NCBI GenBank assembly: GCA_029268645.1
Contig: JAQWNI010000094.1
Span: forward strand, 6,809-70,808
Length of the DNA stretch: 64,000 bases
Direction of reading: 5' to 3'
From: Myxococcota bacterium
GTDB taxonomy: Bacteria; Myxococcota_A; UBA9160; UBA4427
How positions within the stretch are numbered: the first letter of the stretch is position 1; the number at the start of each line of letters is the position of its first letter. Position numbers and translations under genes: made by a program. Shown here one piece after another: positions 26,749-39,941 of the stretch. Below the pieces are notes generated by a model that saw only the letters and a program-made list of their open reading frames with translations, made no database searches and had not been told where the DNA came from.

Positions 26749-27084
26749 ATGCGATTTATGACAACGCCACGGGGACTCATGCTCGCTTTTTGGCTGGTGT
26801 CAGGCTCCCTCTCCTGTGCCCAAGTCCACTTGGAGAGCCAGGGAGAGTCCGTCCATCGCCTCGGAGCCCAGGAATTACCTGACTGCACACGGGTAGGGAC
26901 GACCCGTGTGCAAGTGCTCGCCAAGGTACTGTACGTCCCTCGAAGCGCTCATCGAGTCGACGACGAACTCACGATTCTGGCCCGAAATGCGGCAGGAAAC
27001 ATGGGAGGCAATACGGTGGTCGCAGAAGGTGGCACCCGCAATGGCAAACAGACTTTCGGTGTTTTTACGTGCCCAGATCAATGA
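26749..27084 (+). CDS. small lipoprotein (DUF4156-like)
   Basis: 111 aa, starting at ATG 26749. Signal peptide plus lipobox GSLSC. LARNAAGNMGGNTVV...GVFTC resembles the DUF4156 pattern. The 3' end overlaps the next gene. Confidence 0.55.
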   Translation: MRFMTTPRGLMLAFWLVSGSLSCAQVHLESQGESVHRLGAQELPDCTRVGTTRVQVLAKVLYVPRSAHRVDDELTILARNAAGNMGGNTVVAEGGTRNGKQTFGVFTCPDQ

Positions 27085-29066
27085 TTGCAAACGGGGCGCT
27101 TCGATCGAAAACCGCCCGAAACCGAGCACCCTCTCTCTTCGTCAGAGCACTCTGTGTCGTGAGCACGATGATTATCCCCGCATCTGCCATCGGGAACCAA
27201 GTCAAGGCGCAGAAATCGACCGTCCTTGAAGGTGGGACCCTGCGGGCTCCCTGTCGCGAATCCACCCCCCTGCGACAGCCGTTTTTCGGCGACCTTCATG
27301 TTCATACGGCTTTTTCCCTGGACGCCTCGACGATGGACACCCGAAATAGACCCGCCGACGCCTATCGTTTCGCCCAGGGTCAGCCCTTGGGCTTGCAGCC
27401 GTACACCGCAGAAGGCACGCCGATGCGAAGTGCCCAACTCGCCCGCCCCTTGGACTTTGCTGCGGTGACCGACCATGCCGAGCTCCTGGGCGAGACCCAC
27501 ATCTGTCAGGCACCGGACCTCGAAGGATACGACTCCTGGGTCTGCCAGCTTTACCGCCGCTGGCCACGGGCCGCTTTTTTTTGGATGAATTTTCAAGCCA
27601 GCCGGGCGACCCGTCACGATTTCTGTGGGCCCGATGGCTCGGCGTGCCGCACCGCCGCTCGACCACCTTGGCAAGAAATCATCGAGGCCGCCGAGGCTGC
27701 GTACGATCGCAGCGAAGACTGCACATTCACGAGCTTCATCGGTTACGAGTGGACGGGGGCTGTAGGCCCCGGCAACAACTTCCATCGCAATGTGATTTTC
27801 GAAAACGACCTCGTCCCAGAGCTGCCCTTGAGTTTTATCGACCAACCCGATCTCGAAAGTTTCTGGAAACAGCTGGGGGCCCAATGTCAAATCGCGGGCG
27901 ACGAATGTGATGTCGTCGTCATTCCCCACAACTCAAACCTTTCTGCCGGCAAGATGTTCCGCACCCAGCAGGAAGATGGGAAGCCCATTTCTCGCAATGA
28001 AGCCGAGGCACGAAAGCGCTACGAGGTCCTCGTCGAAATGATCCAGCACAAGGGCGAGTCTGAATGCTTCCCCGGTCTTGGGAACTCAGATGAACTCTGT
28101 GCCTTTGAGAAGCTCTCCACCAACAGCTTCACCGGTCGATACTTCTGGGCATCGGACACCCGCCCGAAGGGACGGCAGTTCGTCCGCAATCTACTCCGGG
28201 AGGGCATGCAGCAAGAAAAGAAACTCGGGGTCAACCCCTTTCAATTTGGCTTCATCGGCAGCACGGACACACACCTGGGGACGCCGGGCTTGGTCGCAGA
28301 AACAGCAGATTTCCCGGGTCATGGCGGCGCTGGAAAACCGGCGGGCGACTCTGTCCCCACCGGACTGCCAGACTTCGTCGAATTCAACCCAGGTGGCCTT
28401 GCGGTACTCTGGGCTGAAGAAAATTCACGCAAAGCGCTTTTCGCCGCGATGAAGCGACGCGAAGCCTATGCAACCAGTGGCCCGCGCATGGTGGTTCGTT
28501 TTTTTGGGGGTGACGACCTGCCGCTGGACTATTGTGATCGGCCCGATGCCGTGGCGACCGGTTATGCCAAGGGAGTTCCAATGGGCGGCATACTCCCTGA
28601 CCAAGGCCCCGAATCGACCCCACCCCGGTTCGCCGTCTCGGTCCTCGCAGATCCCGGGACACCCGCCCGCCTCGGGAATGCCCTCGACCGCGTTCAGATC
28701 ATCAAGGGCTGGACAACGGAAGATGCGACCCACGAGGCCGTCTATGATGTGGCGTCGGGAAGGCCCCTGCCCTCCTCGGTCGATCCCCTGACCTGTCAGC
28801 CGGTGCCGGGGGGCACCCAAAGTCTTTGCACGGTCTGGCGCGACCCAGACTGGGACCCAAAGCAATCTGCTTTTTACTATGTCCGTGCTCTCGAAAAACC
28901 ATCCTGCCGATGGAGTCAAAAACTGTGCGTCCAGGCAGGGATCCAATGCGACGACCCCGATTCGATCCCAGAGGGGTTTGAAGCCTGCTGCAGCACGGGC
29001 CATCGCCCGCTCATTCAAGAGAGGGCTTGGACCTCGCCCATCTGGTATCGGCCGGATTCGACATGA
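27069..29066 (+). CDS. DUF3604 family protein (PHP-like metal-dependent hydrolase fold), paralog 1
   Basis: FFGDLHVHTAFSLDAS, AVTDHAE, IGYEWTG and VIPHNSN motifs. Cys-rich conserved C-terminus, ...AWTSPIWY. N-terminal signal-like segment. The start is ambiguous (GTG 27069 or ATG 27081). Confidence 0.8.
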   Translation: MPRSMIANGALRSKTARNRAPSLFVRALCVVSTMIIPASAIGNQVKAQKSTVLEGGTLRAPCRESTPLRQPFFGDLHVHTAFSLDASTMDTRNRPADAYRFAQGQPLGLQPYTAEGTPMRSAQLARPLDFAAVTDHAELLGETHICQAPDLEGYDSWVCQLYRRWPRAAFFWMNFQASRATRHDFCGPDGSACRTAARPPWQEIIEAAEAAYDRSEDCTFTSFIGYEWTGAVGPGNNFHRNVIFENDLVPELPLSFIDQPDLESFWKQLGAQCQIAGDECDVVVIPHNSNLSAGKMFRTQQEDGKPISRNEAEARKRYEVLVEMIQHKGESECFPGLGNSDELCAFEKLSTNSFTGRYFWASDTRPKGRQFVRNLLREGMQQEKKLGVNPFQFGFIGSTDTHLGTPGLVAETADFPGHGGAGKPAGDSVPTGLPDFVEFNPGGLAVLWAEENSRKALFAAMKRREAYATSGPRMVVRFFGGDDLPLDYCDRPDAVATGYAKGVPMGGILPDQGPESTPPRFAVSVLADPGTPARLGNALDRVQIIKGWTTEDATHEAVYDVASGRPLPSSVDPLTCQPVPGGTQSLCTVWRDPDWDPKQSAFYYVRALEKPSCRWSQKLCVQAGIQCDDPDSIPEGFEACCSTGHRPLIQERAWTSPIWYRPDST

Positions 29067-32038: not shown

Positions 32039-32848
32039 ATGCCCCATTCGCTCACGCCGGGCGAGCGAGACCGCTACGAGAAGGAGGGTTTCTTCTCTCG
32101 CAATCAGGTCTTCTCACCTCAAGAAATCGAACACCTGCGCCAGGCCACGGAATCGGTCCATGCCCAGGTCCTCGACGCCGCCGGTTCCCTGGAATCCGGC
32201 AAAGTCGAGCAGATCGACAACCAGAAATTTCAAGAAGTACTCGGCTCGACGATCAAGTGGGAGTGGAGTGACGACCTCCGGGCCATTCGCTCAATGGAAC
32301 CGGTGCACCATCTAGAGGCTCGGCTGGCCCAACTGGTGGACGATCCACGAATCTGGGGGCCTTGTGCCGATATCATCGGCCAGAACCATCTCTCGCTCTT
32401 CAGTGACAAAATGAATGTCAAACGACCCGGGGGAGCCCCATTTCCCTGGCACCAGGAAGGCCCCTACTGGGCCTATGGTGCCGAAGACCTTGAGCACGTG
32501 GTGACCCTGATCATCTATCTCGACGATGCACATGAAGACAACGGATGCCTCTGGGTCATCCCCGGCACCCATCGATACGGAGCCTTGGAATCCCTCAAAG
32601 ATCGAGGGACTTTGGGACGCCTCTACACGGATGTCGACCGACTCGAAGAAAAACCGTTTCCGATCGCCCTGCCCGCCGGATCTGTGGCTTGGTTCCATCG
32701 TGACATCGTCCACGGGTCTCAGAGCAACCGGTCGAGTGAAGATCGTCGGGCATTCCTCCTCGCCTACCAACCGGCGGGCCTCCACCAATGGCGCAACGGT
32801 CAGCAGCGTGACGTGGGCCGAGCCAGAGAAAGCATTTCCGCGGACTGA
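32039..32848 (+). CDS. phytanoyl-CoA dioxygenase (PhyH) family Fe(II)/2-oxoglutarate oxygenase
   Basis: N-terminal TPGERDRYEKEGFF, FPWHQEG (HxD/E facial-triad region), and a distal HGSQSNRS. Confidence 0.75.
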   Translation: MPHSLTPGERDRYEKEGFFSRNQVFSPQEIEHLRQATESVHAQVLDAAGSLESGKVEQIDNQKFQEVLGSTIKWEWSDDLRAIRSMEPVHHLEARLAQLVDDPRIWGPCADIIGQNHLSLFSDKMNVKRPGGAPFPWHQEGPYWAYGAEDLEHVVTLIIYLDDAHEDNGCLWVIPGTHRYGALESLKDRGTLGRLYTDVDRLEEKPFPIALPAGSVAWFHRDIVHGSQSNRSSEDRRAFLLAYQPAGLHQWRNGQQRDVGRARESISAD

Positions 32849-33018
32849 AATACCGGACGCTCGATCGCGGCCCCCTACGGACCATCTGCAAACCGGCGGT
32901 CGCTGATGACCTGCTGGCCTCGCAGTTCTCCGGCAAAACCACCCACGTACCCGCGGGGATCTTGCGTCGATCGCGAGGCTCTTCCCCTGCCCTCGAGAGA
33001 TATCCCTGCGCTGGCCTT

Positions 33019-33042
33019 GTAAACTAACGCTAGTTAGTTTAC
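33019..33042. promoter_or_regulatory. candidate TetR operator: 10-bp perfect inverted repeat with a 4-bp spacer
   Basis: gtaaactaac-gcta-gttagtttac. It is AT-rich within GC-rich DNA and ends 11 bp upstream of the TetR ATG (33054). Confidence 0.5.
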
Positions 33043-33053
33043 GATGACTCCGA

Positions 33054-33743
33054 ATGAATCCCCCCGCTCGCCCCAACACTGATCAGGCCTCGCGCCCGAC
33101 CCCGGATCGGATCCTCGACGCCGCTGAGGTCTGCTTTGCTCGGCGGGGGTTCGATGGCACCACCCTCCGCGACATCGCGGAGCGGGTCGGCATTCGAATT
33201 CCAAGCCTCTATAACCACTTTGACGGAAAGCAGAGCATCTATGCCGCTGTCCTGGCCCGCGGCCTGGCCCCCATCCTCGCAATGCTTGCCCGGGCCGTTG
33301 AAGATGGGGATCAAGAGGCCCCTCCGGATCCCCGTCGTTTTGTCACCGAGGTCATGGAAACCCTGGCGATGCACCCCGACCTCCCGAGATTGGTCCAATA
33401 CGAAATGTTGGCCGGTGGAGAGAACCTCGCCCTACTGCTCGAAGGCTGGCTGCGACCCACGATGGAACGCAGTCTCGAACTGTTGCAGGAAACCCCTGCC
33501 GCACGTCATTGGAAACCAGACCAACTGCCGCTTCTACAACTGGCCTTGGTCAACATGCTGATCGGCCACTTCACGATGACCCCCCTCACCGAGCAACTGC
33601 TGGGAAGAGATTCCCAGAGCGTCTTGGGCCTTGAACAGGCGACAGATTTCTACGCACAGGCCGCTGGTCTATTGACCTTCGGCGGCGCCTCTCAGCCTTC
33701 CCCTGAATCAATGCATTCAACCGATATGGAGCACTCCAAGTGA
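33054..33743 (+). CDS. TetR/AcrR family transcriptional regulator
   Basis: HTH region: RILDAAEVCFARRGFDGTTLRDIAERVGIRIPSLYNHFDGKQSIY. The stop overlaps the GTG start of the P450 gene. Confidence 0.85.
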   Translation: MNPPARPNTDQASRPTPDRILDAAEVCFARRGFDGTTLRDIAERVGIRIPSLYNHFDGKQSIYAAVLARGLAPILAMLARAVEDGDQEAPPDPRRFVTEVMETLAMHPDLPRLVQYEMLAGGENLALLLEGWLRPTMERSLELLQETPAARHWKPDQLPLLQLALVNMLIGHFTMTPLTEQLLGRDSQSVLGLEQATDFYAQAAGLLTFGGASQPSPESMHSTDMEHSK

Positions 33744-34972
33744 ATCAATCCGACTTTCGATATCTCGACTCCGCCAACTGGACCCCCGGCATTATGCCTC
33801 GCCTACGTGAACTTCAAGAAAAAGATCCGGTTCACTGGTCGGCACCCGACGAGGTCTTTGTAATCACTCGGTTCGACGACGTCGCTGCCATTTCTAAAAA
33901 CCAGGCACTATTCACCTCAGCCGAGGGAGTTCGGCCTTCCAACCCGGCCAAAATCGGATTGATCGATGAGGCCGAACCCCGACATGGACAGCTTCGTGGG
34001 ATGATCAACAAGGGTTTTACTCCTCGCATGGTCAAGCACCTCGAAACTGTCTTCCGTGGCATCACTCAAGATGCGATCGATTCGGTGGCCCGTCAGGGGC
34101 ATTGCGATTTCGTAAAATCCATTTCAGTTCCCCTGCCCTTACTCCTGATCGCCGAAATGCTCGGAATCCGACCCGAAGATCGAGATCGATTCCATCAATG
34201 GTCCGATGCGATGATCGCCGGCGACGGGAATTTCGACAAACCGGAAATCATGGCAGCTGCCGGGATGGCCTTCCTGGAATATTCCGCTTATCTAAAAGAA
34301 GTCATCGAGAATCGGAGAGAGCATCCGCAGGACGACCTCATCACAATCCTCGTCGGTGCCAAGGACGACGGGCTTCTCACCCGGTTTGATCAGAACGAGA
34401 ACGTCAACCAACACACCGGGGTGGATCACGGCGATATCGCCACCGACGAACTGATCATGCTCTGCACGATCCTTCTGGTCGCCGGCAACGAAACCACCCG
34501 TAACGGCATCTCGGGGGGCATGGAATTGCTGATCGAGCACCCCGAACAGCGTCAATGCCTGATCGATGATCCCTCACTCATCCCGGCCGCCGTTGAGGAA
34601 ATGCTGCGGTTCGTGTCTCCGGTCCACAGCTTCTCTCGCACTGTCACTCAAGACACCGAACTCCACGGAGTCTCGATTCGAAAGGGACAACACGTGCTGA
34701 TGGTCTACCCGATCGCGAACCGGGATCCCCGAACCTTCGAGAACCCCGACGTCTTCGACATCACTCGTAATCCCGCCCATGTCGCGTTCGGCATTGGCAG
34801 CCATTTTTGTCTAGGTGCCAACCTCGCTCGAATGGAAATGCGGGTCGCCTTCGAAGAATTGCTTCGACGTATCCCCGACATGTCTTATACCACCGGAGGA
34901 CCCACCTTGGTCCCCTCGGCGCTGGTTCGAAGCTGCACCGAGATGCAGGTGGCGTTCACCCCAGAGCAGTGA
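33740..34972 (+). CDS. cytochrome P450
   Basis: I-helix LLVAGNETTRNG, ExxR motif (EEMLRF), and heme-thiolate loop FGIGSHFCLGANLAR. Confidence 0.9.
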   Translation: MNQSDFRYLDSANWTPGIMPRLRELQEKDPVHWSAPDEVFVITRFDDVAAISKNQALFTSAEGVRPSNPAKIGLIDEAEPRHGQLRGMINKGFTPRMVKHLETVFRGITQDAIDSVARQGHCDFVKSISVPLPLLLIAEMLGIRPEDRDRFHQWSDAMIAGDGNFDKPEIMAAAGMAFLEYSAYLKEVIENRREHPQDDLITILVGAKDDGLLTRFDQNENVNQHTGVDHGDIATDELIMLCTILLVAGNETTRNGISGGMELLIEHPEQRQCLIDDPSLIPAAVEEMLRFVSPVHSFSRTVTQDTELHGVSIRKGQHVLMVYPIANRDPRTFENPDVFDITRNPAHVAFGIGSHFCLGANLARMEMRVAFEELLRRIPDMSYTTGGPTLVPSALVRSCTEMQVAFTPEQ

Positions 34973-35050: not shown

Positions 35051-35584
35051 TCAGCGATCGAGTAGAAGATCGCAGAGTGACTCAAAGGAATCGTCGGCGA
35101 TCGCCCTCATTTCTTCGTCCGTTCGGTCCTGGATCGGATGAGGGACATAGATCGCCGCAGCTTCGGATCCAAGGGCTGCCGCCTGTTGATCAGCGCCATC
35201 TTCAAAAACATCACTCGCCACGAAAACACTCGGGACGCCGAGAATTTCTAGGTTTATCGTGTCGTGCACACTGCACGACGTACAGCTCCCTCAATCCGCG
35301 AGCGCCTCCACAACCGCTTCGCATTCCTCGGCAATCTGGCGACGCACATCAACTGGGGCCGGCTTCGTAAACGTGGGCTTCTTGTAACGTCGGACCTGGG
35401 CTCCTTCTTCTCGAAAGCGCTCTTCCAGCCGATCGAGAAAGAGGTCTCCTCGCGCCTTCGAGATATCCAACAGTCCCAGCGTCAGCCCATTCAACGTCTT
35501 CGGTCTCGGCAACCGAGCCCGTCCGACCGGCGCGCGCTCGGCAGTCGGATCCAGGACAACCGCCCCATGTGCTCGAAAACTCAT
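35051..35584 (-). CDS. candidate selenoprotein with a U-G-S-C motif (in-frame TGA at 35293..35291 read as selenocysteine); 177 codons
   Basis: Track ORFs 35291..35584 and 35051..35269 are in the same frame and are separated only by TGA plus 7 sense codons, giving ...EALAD-U-GSCTSCS-VHDTINLEILGVP.... The hairpin starts 11 nt after the TGA. The downstream piece has only a GTG start and no well-spaced SD. The ATG at 35584 overlaps the upstream gene's stop (ATGA). Confidence 0.75.
35261..35279 (-). promoter_or_regulatory. SECIS-like hairpin downstream of the in-frame UGA
   Basis: mRNA: UGA-GGGAGCUGUAC-[GUCGUGCA-GUG-UGCACGAC]. The stem is a perfect 8-bp pairing, or 7 bp with a 5-nt AGUGU loop. 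The apical loop contains G-U. The stem begins exactly 11 nt after the UGA. Confidence 0.55.
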
Positions 35585-37029
35585 CCTCTAATCTCCTGAC
35601 AAACTGGCTGGCTTCCCATCTCGCCCGTCACCCAGCCACCAATCATGGCGGAGAAGAGGCCGGCTTCGCCACCGCAATGAACGATGAGGATACCCCCCGG
35701 CCTGAACTTAGGAAGCACCTTGGCTTGAACCGTCTCTGGGATGCCTTCAGCGACGCCATCCGCCCCACGCAGCAGCTCTTCTCTCGGAATCAGAAGCAAC
35801 TCGTGGAGGCGCGAGAGCAGGGATTTTTTATCCCAACCGGCTTCGGCGAAAACCCGAGCGTGTTCGGGTCCGATCGCCAAGAGGCAATCAAAAGCCATGA
35901 CTGCCTTCGGGTGGTGAAGGCTCCTTAGATTCATCGCATAACTACGGACTAAGGCCTCAGGGTCACGTGCCAGCTGATCGACGATGGTTCGAGGCCCCTC
36001 CCCCGGAAAAAGAGTGACTGTATTCTGGCCCGCATCCGCGCCAAGATCCGTCGAAAGAGGCGACCAAGGTGAGCCCTCCTCATCCTCCGCAAAGCAGAAC
36101 CCGACTTTTCCGGGGTTGCCGAACGTCGCACGGTCGATCTCCCCGGGTCGCCCGCCCCCGACATTGCGCACGACGAGTTGGAGAGCACGCCCAATCGTCG
36201 AATTCGCTCGGTTTCCCTGACCAAAAACATTACGCCCGGAGTTCATGCCCAGTGCCCGACGGATGGGGCCGTTCACCACGAGAACGGGACCAGCCGTCAT
36301 CGTCGTAGCAAGCAAGCCATGAATATTGAAAGCCTCCGTACACGCCGCCTCGACCGCCGCCAGTACGACCGGCAAATACTCGGGCTTACAGCCCGCAAGG
36401 ACCGCGTTGATGGCCACTTTCTCCACCGTACACGGGGCAAGGTCAGGAGGGACATGGGCCACGATCTCGTCGGGGGCACGCGAGGTGCCCTCAAGCATCG
36501 CCAGGACTCTGCGCTGGGTGGGCGGCACAACCGGCAATCCGTCAGTCCAGCCCCTTTCGTAGAGGGCTTCCACTTCATCTTCGGCCGTTCCAAACTCGAT
36601 CCGCCGAGACTGAAGAGAGTGATCGCCGAATCGAACTTGGAGATCAAGCGCAACTTCCGGGTCCACCGAAGCCGAACCGCAGCCGGGGCGAAGCGCGGGC
36701 AAACCAGCCCCCAGCCCCTCCTGTCCCGTGAGCAGTTCCCAGTCCCCCCGGTGCCAACCCACGGTGCGTTCGACCTCGACACCGGCCTCCACTCGCAAAA
36801 GCGTGGGGACCACTTCAATCCGGTGTCTGTAGGAGGCCTCGAGGTCTGTATCGTCGAGCGGCTGGAGGTTCGGCGGGAAAGACGAGTCATCTTGGGTGTA
36901 GACTGTCACCTTCAGCCGCTCAGCCAAATCTCTCAAGATCGGAACCACCAGCCCACACGTAGGGCAGTCCCGCTTCACAAACGCAACCAAGCCCTCCGGC
37001 AAGGGGGGGCGCTCAGCTTCCGGTGCCAT
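35581..37029 (-). CDS. thioredoxin-fold (CPTC) domain fused to a roughly 330-aa uncharacterised domain
   Basis: 482 aa. AGGAGA lies 6 nt upstream of the ATG at 37029. The N-terminus, FVKRDCPTCGLVVPIL...IEVVPTLL, has a CxxC motif and a cis-Pro, indicating a Trx fold. The C-terminal region, GWTDGLPVVPPT...EKVAINAVLAGCKPEYLPV...GQGNRANSTIGRALQL, matches no family I can name. Confidence 0.75.
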   Translation of the reverse strand: MAPEAERPPLPEGLVAFVKRDCPTCGLVVPILRDLAERLKVTVYTQDDSSFPPNLQPLDDTDLEASYRHRIEVVPTLLRVEAGVEVERTVGWHRGDWELLTGQEGLGAGLPALRPGCGSASVDPEVALDLQVRFGDHSLQSRRIEFGTAEDEVEALYERGWTDGLPVVPPTQRRVLAMLEGTSRAPDEIVAHVPPDLAPCTVEKVAINAVLAGCKPEYLPVVLAAVEAACTEAFNIHGLLATTMTAGPVLVVNGPIRRALGMNSGRNVFGQGNRANSTIGRALQLVVRNVGGGRPGEIDRATFGNPGKVGFCFAEDEEGSPWSPLSTDLGADAGQNTVTLFPGEGPRTIVDQLARDPEALVRSYAMNLRSLHHPKAVMAFDCLLAIGPEHARVFAEAGWDKKSLLSRLHELLLIPREELLRGADGVAEGIPETVQAKVLPKFRPGGILIVHCGGEAGLFSAMIGGWVTGEMGSQPVCQEIRG

Positions 37030-37076
37030 CGTCTTTCTCCTAAAAAAAGTCTAGCCCAGCCCCTGGCACCTGGAAC

Positions 37077-37102
37077 GATCCTCGCTCCGCTGAGCGGGGA
37101 TC
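37077..37102. other. 11-bp-stem inverted repeat (gatcctcgctc-cgct-gagcggggatc)
   Basis: Located in the divergent intergenic region between the Trx-fusion gene and the VOC gene. There is one mismatch at the DNA level (a G-U pair in RNA) and no flanking T-run. Confidence 0.4.
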
Positions 37103-37248
37103 CTCAGGCCGCGCCCTTGTCAAAATGCTCCGCCCAGACGACTCAACAGTGTGGGAGAACGGATTCCGCCGGTTTTGCTTGGCGAGGCGTCATTGATGGA
37201 TTACGCTCGGCGGTCATCATTCGATGGGCCGGTTCACCGGGAGGCACG

Positions 37249-37800
37249 ATGGCTGAGTCGTCCGAAGCGCGATCAAAGAGCCTGCACCATGTCGCCTATG
37301 CGACGCGAGACCCCGAGGCGACGTATGCCTTCTACACGGGTCAGCTCGGAATCCCTCTCGTCCACGCGGAGAACCACAAACAAGGCGACGGTTTCTTCCG
37401 CCACTTTTTCTTCGACATGGGACGGGGGGACTATCTCGCCTTTTTTCAAATCGGAGATGTCGGCGAGAAGGAAGACTACCGCACGGACGTATCCACTGGA
37501 GCAGGGCTTCCGGTCTGGGTCAACCACGTCGCTTTTCGAGTCGATAGCCATGAAGAACTCGACGCGATGAACGCCCGAATGCAATCTCGAGGCGTCGAGC
37601 ATATCCACGAAGTGGATCACGGTTGGTGCCGTTCCATCTACACTGTGGATCCAAACGGAATTATGGTGGAGTTTTGCGTGACCACCGATCAAAAAGCCTT
37701 TGAGCAGACCGAAGAAGAAGCCCTCCGTCTCCTAAGGCTCCCACCCGACCAAATTTCGGAAGACAGTCGCAAGGAACCCGCCTCTTCCAAACGCCCTTAA
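37249..37800 (+). CDS. VOC (glyoxalase/bleomycin-resistance/dioxygenase) family protein
   Basis: 183 aa from ATG 37249: LHHVAYATRDPEATYAFYTGQLG...NHVAFRV...DPNGIMVEF. The upstream 357 codons of track ORF 36178..37800 are an antisense shadow. Confidence 0.8.
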   Translation: MAESSEARSKSLHHVAYATRDPEATYAFYTGQLGIPLVHAENHKQGDGFFRHFFFDMGRGDYLAFFQIGDVGEKEDYRTDVSTGAGLPVWVNHVAFRVDSHEELDAMNARMQSRGVEHIHEVDHGWCRSIYTVDPNGIMVEFCVTTDQKAFEQTEEEALRLLRLPPDQISEDSRKEPASSKRP

Positions 37801-37881: not shown

Positions 37882-38895
37882 ATGTTCGTCGACTTTCTCC
37901 AACTAGCGGCTGGGCTGACGATCCTCGTTGCTGGAGGGGAGTTGATGGTCCGCGGGGCCTCTTCTCTCGCGAGAAGACTCGGCATCTCAAATCTCATCAT
38001 TGGCCTCACAGTCGTGGCATTCGGCACCAGCGCCCCTGAGCTGGCGGTCAACATCGGCGCGGCCCTTAACAATGCGGGCTCTCTTGCCTTCGGCAACATC
38101 TTCGGGTCGAACATGGCCAACATTGGGCTCATTATTGCGCTCGTGGCTATTCTTCAACCGATTCCGATTCAGAACATTCTGATCCACCGCGAGCTTCCGA
38201 TGCTCATCTTGGCGACCGCCGCCGCCCTCGTGATGGCATTCGACTCGGAACTCGGCGGTGAGCGCAACGCCTACATGAGAACCGATGGCATCGTTCTCCT
38301 CTTCTTCTTCGTCATTTTTCTCTACTACACCATCAGCGACTTACTCCACCGGGGGCAAACCGGCGCTGAGCGGGCGGACAATGATGGTGCACCCCTCATC
38401 GAAATCCCAGAGGATGAGGACCACAAACCAGGCGGGGGACTCGGCCGGGACATTCTCCTGACTCTACTGGGCTTGGTGGGCTTGGTCGGCGGAGCCAAAT
38501 TGACAGTGGAAGGAGCCGTCGGCCTCGCGTACGCATTTGCGGTGCCCGAGGTCGTGATCGGCCTCACGATGGTTTCGTTGGGAACGAGCCTTCCGGAATT
38601 GGCCGCGGCCATGTCCTGCTTGCGGCATGGCAAGGCCGACATGGCTGTAGGCAGTGTCATCGGCTCAAATATCTTCAACACGTTGCTGGTGGCTGGCGTC
38701 ACGGCCACGGTTCACCCCATGATGATTCCCCCAAGCGGAACCGTAGACCTGGTGGCTACCTGCGTGATGTCTTTACTCTTCGCCTTAACAGCCTACACCC
38801 GCGGAAACGTCATCATACGAGCCGAAGGCGTCTTGCTGATGGTTGTTTACGTCACCTACCTGGTTTGGCGAACCATCTACTACGCGACCAGCTGA
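37882..38895 (+). CDS. Ca2+/Na+ antiporter (CaCA family, YrbG-like)
   Basis: Two alpha-repeats, GTSAPELAVN and GTSLPELAAA. GNIFGSNMANIGL and GSVIGSNIFN. About 10 TM segments. Confidence 0.85.
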   Translation: MFVDFLQLAAGLTILVAGGELMVRGASSLARRLGISNLIIGLTVVAFGTSAPELAVNIGAALNNAGSLAFGNIFGSNMANIGLIIALVAILQPIPIQNILIHRELPMLILATAAALVMAFDSELGGERNAYMRTDGIVLLFFFVIFLYYTISDLLHRGQTGAERADNDGAPLIEIPEDEDHKPGGGLGRDILLTLLGLVGLVGGAKLTVEGAVGLAYAFAVPEVVIGLTMVSLGTSLPELAAAMSCLRHGKADMAVGSVIGSNIFNTLLVAGVTATVHPMMIPPSGTVDLVATCVMSLLFALTAYTRGNVIIRAEGVLLMVVYVTYLVWRTIYYATS

Positions 38896-39941
38896 TGCAG
38901 AATGGACTCAAACATAAATCGGCTTCAGTCTTCAGCAGGACGGCGAGCTGGGCCTCCACCCCGACACTGCTCCTACTGAATGTCCTGCTGCTGGCCAGCG
39001 TTAGCCAGGCCCATCCCCTGGCACCAGCCCTTCTTGAACTGACTGCAGAAGAAAGCGGAATCACATCCGTCCTTTGGAAAGTCTCTCGGCTTCGGCCTCG
39101 CGGACAAGAGCTTCGGCCAGAGCTGCCCGTCGACTGTCCCCCCATCGGGCCTGTCGAAGAATCCGGCGACGCGCAGAGTGTTTCTCTGGCCTGGACAGTC
39201 GACTGCGGGCCAGCGGGAATCGTGGGGCAAAGGGTCGGCCTCGCCAGCAACGGGCCAATCCAGATCGACGTCTTACTCCGAATTTCTCTGCCTGACGGTC
39301 GGGTCGTTCGCGACGTACTCCGCAAGGGACACCCCAGCATCCAGGTCCCCGCGAAACAAACAAAACTTCAGGTTGGCTGGGGCTATTTAATCCTCGGGTT
39401 CGAGCATATTCTGGGCGGAACGGATCACTTAATGTTCGTCTTAGGTCTGATGCTTCTTGTCATTGGCATCCGCCCCCTCGTCAAGACGATCACCGCCTTT
39501 ACGCTCGGACACAGCGTGACGCTTTCTCTCGCGACGCTAGGGATCACCCAAGTCCCGAGCGCTTTGGCAGAATTCCTGATTGCCGCCACACTACTCGCCC
39601 TAGCCGTCGAACTCGCGACACCCACCGGCGACCGCCCGGCCCTGATCCAACGGCACCCCTGGCTGATGGCCTGCGCCTTTGGTCTCGTTCACGGCCTGGG
39701 GTTCGCTGGAGCCCTCTCAGAAGTAGGGCTTCCCCAACAGGAAATTCCCCTGGCTCTCCTCGCCTTCAACATCGGCATCGAGACTGGACAGTTACTCTTC
39801 GTCTCCGGCATGGCGATTATTGTGGTGGTCGCCTCACGTCCTCTGCGCAACTTGCCCGCTTGGACCCAACAGATTCCCGCCTACGCGATCGGCTCTTGCG
39901 CGGCCTTCTGGTGCTTGGAACGGCTCGCGGACCTCTTCTGA
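38895..39941 (+). CDS. HupE/UreJ-like membrane protein with an N-terminal periplasmic domain
   Basis: The ATG overlaps the antiporter stop (TGATG). Signal peptide LLLLNVLLLASVSQAHP. FEHILGGTDHLMFVLGL and TLGHSVTLSL match HupE-type motifs. Confidence 0.65.
   Translation: MQNGLKHKSASVFSRTASWASTPTLLLLNVLLLASVSQAHPLAPALLELTAEESGITSVLWKVSRLRPRGQELRPELPVDCPPIGPVEESGDAQSVSLAWTVDCGPAGIVGQRVGLASNGPIQIDVLLRISLPDGRVVRDVLRKGHPSIQVPAKQTKLQVGWGYLILGFEHILGGTDHLMFVLGLMLLVIGIRPLVKTITAFTLGHSVTLSLATLGITQVPSALAEFLIAATLLALAVELATPTGDRPALIQRHPWLMACAFGLVHGLGFAGALSEVGLPQQEIPLALLAFNIGIETGQLLFVSGMAIIVVVASRPLRNLPAWTQQIPAYAIGSCAAFWCLERLADLF

Follow-up and report, generated by a model that had tools for sequence, protein, structure and literature searches.

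Zhang and Gladyshev's model of the bacterial SECIS (bSECIS; bSECISearch), of which a 2026 review (PMC13188914) gives a summary, describes a hairpin with a loop of 3–9 nt on an upper stem of 4–16 bp; one of the first two loop positions is a G, and the usual arrangement is N1-G-[G/U]-N-N2, where N1 and N2 are able to pair. The same summary gives a distance from the UGA to the loop of 16–37 nt and a minimum free energy (MFE) of -7.5 kcal/mol or lower. The minimal SECIS of Escherichia coli fdhF is a 17-nt upper stem-loop that begins 11 nt from the UGA (Liu et al. 1998, through the account in PMC8659212); in that account, loop bases G23 and then U24 are essential, and SelB contacts G23 and a bulged U17. 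In the Global Ocean Sampling data, the UGSC-containing protein is represented by 255 Sec and 21 Cys sequences, and it was reported as a selenoprotein of unknown function (PMC2398784). It ranks with the most abundant families of selenoproteins in marine and freshwater samples (PMC2398784, PMC1976440), is said to bear strong predicted SECIS elements (PMC1976440), and is listed with the family model NF041046 in the 2026 review (PMC13188914).

Here, we analysed a hairpin at 35279..35261 on the minus strand of a 64-kb stretch of DNA from a Myxococcota bacterium; this whole stretch is referred to below as the window, and all positions are numbered within it. We put at roughly 0.93 the probability that the hairpin is a bSECIS lying inside the coding region of a selenoprotein gene of the UGSC family. 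The element itself is ordinary: as a bacterial SECIS it is typical, and it belongs to a curated family that has been known as a selenoprotein family since 2007–2008. What our analysis adds is a conserved SECIS consensus, a profile of the constraint acting on it, a partner gene and linkage to sel genes, none of which we found stated in the UGSC papers cited here.

The UGSC gene and its in-frame UGA

The UGSC gene lies on the minus strand (35584..35051), with an ATG start codon at 35584..35582 and a terminal TGA stop codon at 35053..35051. Its first open reading frame (35584..35291) is closed after 97 aa by an internal TGA (35293..35291), and read-through of this TGA gives a protein of 177 aa in which the candidate Sec residue is specified by codon 98. 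Translated across the TGA, and with U entered as C for the NF041046 profile, the protein scored 151.7 bits with NCBIfam NF041046 ("UGSC family (seleno)protein"; curated cut-off 125). It also scored 151.6 bits with Pfam PF24696 (cut-off 25), over residues 10–174 and hence on both sides of the TGA. The [U/C]-G-S-C motif is at its conserved position (ALAD-U-GSCTSCSVHD), with the internal UGA as its U. Among the best 120 homologues, 116 span the motif, and the TGA aligns with Cys in 113 of these; the remaining three carry W, R and G. In its scores over both cut-offs, its U-G-S-C-T-S-C motif and the coexistence of Sec and Cys forms, the gene is the same as the described family (NF041046/PF24696), and we found no difference in membership. 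Public gene calls of the closest relatives, P0004, P0010 and P0021 (99%, 90% and 88% identical), end at the UGA as 97-aa fragments, such that the selenoprotein is systematically truncated in these three annotations.

The predicted model of the UGSC protein (pLDDT 89.7) is a five-stranded flavodoxin-like alpha/beta domain that places the U/C at the N-terminus of a helix. A structure search with this model returned generic flavodoxin-like alpha/beta matches only (TM <= 0.53) and no specific relative, and PDB sequence searches found no match. At the Sec codon, three close full-length relatives (L241 333..848, L242 601..1140 and L243 601..1143) carry TGG (Trp), TGT (Cys) or GGA (Gly), each one base from TGA, and they retain the SECIS-type codons TCG/ACG TGC AGT xTG CAY GAC; these variants are recent substitutions, population variants or sequencing/assembly errors. 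A further relative, P0003, has Arg at the Sec position in its protein sequence.

Around the internal UGA, the minus strand reads GCG GAT TGA GGG AGC TGT ACG TCG TGC AGT GTG CAC GAC ACG. The UGA is followed by an 11-nt spacer, GGGAGCTGTAC (GGGAGCUGUAC; 35290..35280), which comprises the codons for G-S-C and two bases of that for T, and the spacer is followed directly by the hairpin, GUCGUGCA-GUG-UGCACGAC as RNA. Reading the window directly, the 5' arm is GTCGTGCA (35279..35272), the loop is GTG (GUG in the RNA; 35271..35269) and the 3' arm is TGCACGAC (35268..35261). All eight pairs are Watson–Crick, forming a perfect 8-bp stem with no bulge. The sequence-only reading had placed a hairpin at 35261–35279, with its stem starting 11 nt after the UGA and built from the coding sequence for C-T-S-C-S-V-H-D; these coordinates were borne out exactly on the minus strand, and the translation agrees.

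The element has the features of the bSECIS model as summarised in PMC13188914. It is inside an open reading frame, directly 3' of an in-frame UGA, which is aligned with Cys in homologues. It has 8 bp and a 3-nt loop in the window, and 5 bp and a 5-nt loop in orthologues (see below); with the latter boundaries the loop is A-G-U-G-U, in which the outer A and U are able to pair. The distance from the UGA to the loop is 18 nt for the 5-nt loop and 19 nt for the 3-nt loop. The MFE is -10.9 kcal/mol for the 19-nt hairpin alone and -12.4 kcal/mol for the 40 nt from the UGA on, in which the hairpin is both the MFE and the centroid structure, although neither energy is significant relative to shuffled sequences. 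Thus, we found no difference from the model in this summary; the 5 bp that are conserved are at the short end of its range and have no conserved lower stem.

The element shares with E. coli fdhF, as described in PMC8659212, a stem that starts 11 nt after the UGA and an apical loop with G and then U. It differs from fdhF in having no bulged U (U17) in the 5' arm, either in the window or in an ungapped alignment of 119 orthologues, and in lacking a conserved extended helix of ~40 nt with the UGA inside it, as judged by RNAalifold. Moreover, the loop in the window is of 3 nt, or of 5 nt closed by C-G, and is not the fdhF loop. We suggest that the element would act as the fdhF SECIS does, while falling outside that subtype. 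The likeness to fdhF that had been proposed from the sequence stands for the 11-nt spacing and the loop G/U, with the refinement that the bulged U is absent.

Folding energy did not set the hairpin apart. Relative to dinucleotide shuffles, the energy was not exceptional for either 40 nt (z = -1.10) or 76 nt (z = -0.22). Perfect 8-bp hairpins with loops of 3–9 nt occur 32 times in 128 kb (both strands of the window), and we estimate that ~0.0055 such hairpins would be expected by chance per UGA within the 16–37 nt frame. Rfam searches of the whole window at gathering thresholds gave no match at the hairpin or elsewhere, a search of 35150..35400 at E <= 10 gave a single, meaningless snoRNA match, and we found no Rfam families covering bacterial SECIS. 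Because the folding energy is ordinary relative to shuffles, the case against a chance hairpin rests on comparative data; the support for the predicted bSECIS identity is comparative, not energetic.

Constraint on the hairpin in Sec and Cys orthologues

We searched at the DNA level for the pattern D-[U/C]-G-S-C-T-S-C-x-x-H-D, and collected at least 120 loci with TGA from GTDB genomes and at least 120 loci with TGY (Cys) from metagenomes. The TGA loci yielded an ungapped alignment of 119 distinct Sec sequences (alignment A1), and the TGY loci an alignment of 93 distinct Cys sequences (alignment A2); the numbers of unique 33-mers were 83 and 86, respectively. At least 120 species share the TGA at exactly the same codon, with the downstream frame intact. 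The TGA loci listed are from Acidobacteriota, Actinomycetota, Chloroflexota, Myxococcota, Binatia, Methylomirabilota, and Alpha-, Beta- and Gammaproteobacteria.

A 5-bp core, CGUGC/GCACG, is paired in all 83 unique Sec sequences but in only 25.6% of the 86 unique Cys sequences. In the window, this core occupies 35277..35263 on the minus strand, with CGUGC at 35277..35273, GCACG at 35267..35263 and the loop AGUGU at 35272..35268. Pair counts in alignment A1 showed no mismatch at any of the five core pairs in all 119 Sec sequences, and RNAalifold, run on the same sequences, independently returned only this 5-bp stem closing a 5-nt loop; a conserved lower stem or extended helix was sought with RNAalifold from -9 to +63 nt, and none was found. 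The loop is N-G-U-N-N in 83/83 unique Sec sequences, the G-U at loop positions 2–3 being invariant, whereas a loop GU is present in 2/86 unique Cys sequences. Mean hairpin MFE is -8.65 kcal/mol for the Sec set and -4.16 kcal/mol for the Cys set (Mann-Whitney p = 3e-17). Of the 8-bp stem, the three outermost pairs persist in only 65–83% of Sec sequences; judged from the alignment, these pairs are lineage-specific, and the conserved element is shorter than the 8-bp hairpin. Across the listed phyla, the UGSC SECIS may be a near-invariant minimal element of 5 bp and an N-G-U-N-N loop, at a fixed 11–13 nt after the UGA. The sequence-only reading had described a perfect 8-bp stem, or 7 bp closing an AGUGU loop, with G and U in the apical loop. 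Both the full stem and the AGUGU loop are present in the window, and the loop G and U recur in every Sec orthologue, but conservation extends to only 5 bp.

Codon usage within the hairpin differs sharply between the two sets. Codon +5 (counted from the UGA) is restricted to [TA]C[GA] in Sec sequences, whereas any TCN is used in Cys sequences. Codon +6 is TGC in all 83 unique Sec sequences (TGC/TGT 83/0), as compared with 70/16 in the Cys set, and codon +7 is AGT (67) or TGT (16) in the Sec set but any of the six Ser codons in the Cys set, AGT accounting for only 2. Synonymous-codon entropy at codons +5 to +8 is 0.18, 0, 0 and 0 for the Sec set and 1.78, 0.68, 2.1 and 1.57 for the Cys set. A profile of this entropy from codon -12 to codon +22 dips to ~0 at these four codons alone, and for the Sec set alone, with normal flanks in both sets.

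Codon +8 (35267..35269 of the window, minus strand) differs also in the residue it encodes. In Sec forms it is NTG, encoding Val, Leu or Met (xUG in the RNA), or ACG (Thr) where codon +7 is TGT (Cys); in Cys forms it is ACN (Thr). On the strength of these codon patterns, the RNA stem appears to dictate or shape the residue at position +8.

The Sec and Cys sets are from different collections and largely represent different clades (S-[VLM]-H-D and S-T-H-D, respectively), and part of the contrast between them could be phylogenetic. Controls within the Sec sequences argue against this. The spacer, which separates the UGA from the hairpin, varies freely at synonymous sites, with four GGN codons and six Ser codons in use. 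Cys is encoded by TGC/TGT at 59/24 at spacer codon +3, as compared with 83/0 at codon +6 (p = 1.7e-8), and AGT is used at 5/78 at Ser codon +2, as compared with 67/0 for Ser at codon +7 (p = 4e-37).

The pairing itself gives a further indication of what is constrained. Pair 27-39 of alignment A1, which joins two third-codon positions, is GC in 80 sequences, GU in 36 and AU in 3, with no mismatch; TCA/ACA is found only together with CAT in the Sec set (Fisher p = 0.044). In alignment A2, pair 27-39 is mismatched in 46/93 sequences and pair 30-36 in 45/93, and three of the eight hairpin pairs overall are ~50% mismatched in the 93 distinct Cys orthologues. Tolerance of G-U pairs is confined to the sense orientation. 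Since these G-U pairs are A-C mismatches on the opposite strand, the constraint acts on the coding-strand RNA rather than on a palindrome in the DNA. There is little strict compensatory covariation, with four of the five core pairs invariant and 8 cells changed on both sides in alignment A1; hence, the support comes mainly from frozen synonymous sites and the invariant loop G-U. True compensatory covariation, as far as the aligned sequences indicate, is confined to one or two pairs. Constraint at the level of structure is thus kept in Sec orthologues and relaxed in Cys orthologues.

We considered whether the hairpin could be a mere by-product of protein coding, the peptide S-C-S-V-H-D being self-complementary by accident when written in GC-rich codons (UCG UGC ... 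CAC GAC). The amino acids do force part of the stem: pairs 25-41, 26-40, 28-38 and 29-37 are also 99–100% paired in Cys orthologues, certain Cys orthologues fold nearly as well (minimum -10.8 kcal/mol), and the folding energy in the window is not above that of shuffles. However, the sites that the peptide leaves free, namely the third bases of codons +5 and +6, the choice of Ser codon at +7, and both residue and codon at +8, are frozen only in the presence of TGA, and neither the paired core nor the loop GU is maintained in the Cys set. We therefore consider a coding by-product very improbable. A bSECIS accounts for a stem constraint that appears only with TGA, and this, together with membership of a curated selenoprotein family and agreement with each feature of the bSECIS model given above, supports the SECIS-like reading originally made from the sequence. 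The comparison of TGA and Cys orthologues that had been put forward as a check favoured that reading in its main part, the constraint being limited to sequences with TGA, and less so in the covariation, which is found in only one or two pairs.

A second alternative is that the TGA is a true stop codon, a pseudogene lesion or a sequencing error, such that the 97-aa product is the real one and the hairpin is irrelevant or acts as a terminator or attenuator. Public gene callers do end the protein at 97 aa, as described above, and there is a terminator-like hairpin, CTCGGCGTCCCGAG then TGTTTTCG, with a T-rich tail ~50 nt downstream, at 35242..35229 on the minus strand and inside the UGSC reading frame. 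This site, however, shows no conservation across alignment A1, and the region holds 4 such sites, within the expectation of 2.2 +/- 1.7 from shuffles. Moreover, the family profile is continuous across the TGA, and the conservation of the TGA at one codon in at least 120 species, each with an intact frame beyond it, is not what would be expected of a stop or a lesion. We regard this alternative as hardly credible.

Linkage to sel genes and a conserved partner gene

Decoding of the UGSC UGA as Sec by way of a bSECIS would require selA, selB, selC (tRNA-Sec) and selD in the host genome. We counted loci with selA, selB, selD or tRNA-Sec within 8 kb. By tblastn, at least one sel gene was found in 12 of the 120 listed TGA loci (856 kb) and in 0 of the 120 listed Cys loci (629 kb). 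ARAGORN detected tRNA-Sec within the 8-kb loci of 7 TGA orthologues among the 120 listed, and Pfam searches identified SelA, SelB or SelD adjoining the UGSC cassette in L002, L015, L043, L089 and L112. The cassette is directly beside selA, selB and tRNA-Sec at L002 248..4800, L043 2600..6231, L089 2907..7900 (with selD too) and L112 1470..6950, and likewise in L015, L041 and L083. In the 64-kb window, we detected no selA, selB, selD or tRNA-Sec using ARAGORN, Pfam searches of ten ORFs chosen by their size, and tblastn queries consisting of SelA, SelB and SelD from the orthologous loci; ARAGORN found no tRNA at all in the window. For this particular genome, the sel machinery is presumed. A crude scan of the window for further selenoprotein candidates with in-frame TGA and redox motifs returned only off-frame noise besides UGSC.

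It is very unlikely that the hairpin has some other nucleic-acid role, as a regulator-bound DNA palindrome, an mRNA stability or ribosome-pausing element, or an aid to SelB-independent read-through by near-cognate Trp, Cys or Arg. In favour of such a role, the window sequence forms a perfect palindrome at the DNA level, and the close relatives with TGG, TGT or GGA at the Sec codon retain the hairpin. Against it, the G-U at pair 27-39 in 36/119 sequences would become an A-C mismatch in a symmetric DNA site or if the opposite strand were read, and the constraint is found together with TGA. The loop GU and spacing also fit the model of a SelB ligand, and sel genes are linked in orthologous loci.

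Directly upstream of the UGSC gene on the same strand is a gene encoding a protein of 482 aa (35581..37029), with an N-terminal thioredoxin fold (CPTC) and a C-terminal region of ~350 aa that is uncharacterised. The stop codon of this gene overlaps the UGSC start codon (ATGA), and the two genes are therefore probably co-transcribed. A homologue of the upstream gene is located directly upstream of UGSC and on the same strand in 80 of 99 Sec loci and 76 of 81 Cys loci. The protein has at least 8000 homologues, which are named only "thioredoxin (family protein)". Searches of Pfam and NCBIfam gave no model above its curated cut-off, with weak thioredoxin-like matches at the N-terminus. The C-terminal region has invariant Cys residues (C117, C214, C230 and C312); in a Foldseek search with the AF2 model, it weakly matched class I fumarate hydratase (E 1e-4, TM 0.2). 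We conclude that this protein is probably a functional partner of the UGSC selenoprotein.

On the opposite strand, a long ORF (36178..37800, plus strand) overlaps the partner gene, and only its C-terminal residues 369–499 (~37282..37675) match a glyoxalase/dioxygenase domain; the real gene within this ORF probably starts near 37.2 kb, the rest being a shadow ORF. Other genes nearby (27069..29066 on the plus strand, 32039..34972 and 37882..39941) encode a DUF3604 protein (665 aa, 554 bits), a PhyH dioxygenase, a TetR regulator and cytochrome P450, a Na/Ca exchanger and HupE/UreJ. The neighbourhood is ordinary chromosomal DNA, with no gene obviously related to selenium.

Proposed recoding at the UGSC UGA and its meaning for the family

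On the basis of the bSECIS assignment, we propose that when a ribosome reaches the UGA at 35293..35291, the apical G-U of the stem-loop 18–19 nt downstream would be bound by SelB with its C-terminal winged-helix domain. This SelB would carry Sec-tRNA(Sec) and GTP, and the tethered complex would bring Sec to the A site. The UGA would then be decoded as Sec rather than as a stop codon, and translation would run on to the TGA at 35053..35051, which has no such hairpin 3' of it and would end translation. Since the gene's own terminal stop codon is also TGA, recoding must be local to the internal UGA. Both SelB binding and actual Sec insertion at the UGSC UGA are inferred.

The first consequence is for annotation: the gene should be called as one 177-aa selenoprotein. 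It also provides a clean example of dual coding, in which an RNA signal within an ORF freezes synonymous sites. It is possible, although we would lean slightly against it, that the UGSC SECIS is an effectively universal SelB ligand that travels with the gene, and that UGSC and its thioredoxin-fused partner make up a two-component redox system, the two genes being located within the selA-selB-selD-selC locus in some lineages. The hairpin itself raises no new question about recoding, and interest shifts to UGSC and its conserved partner.
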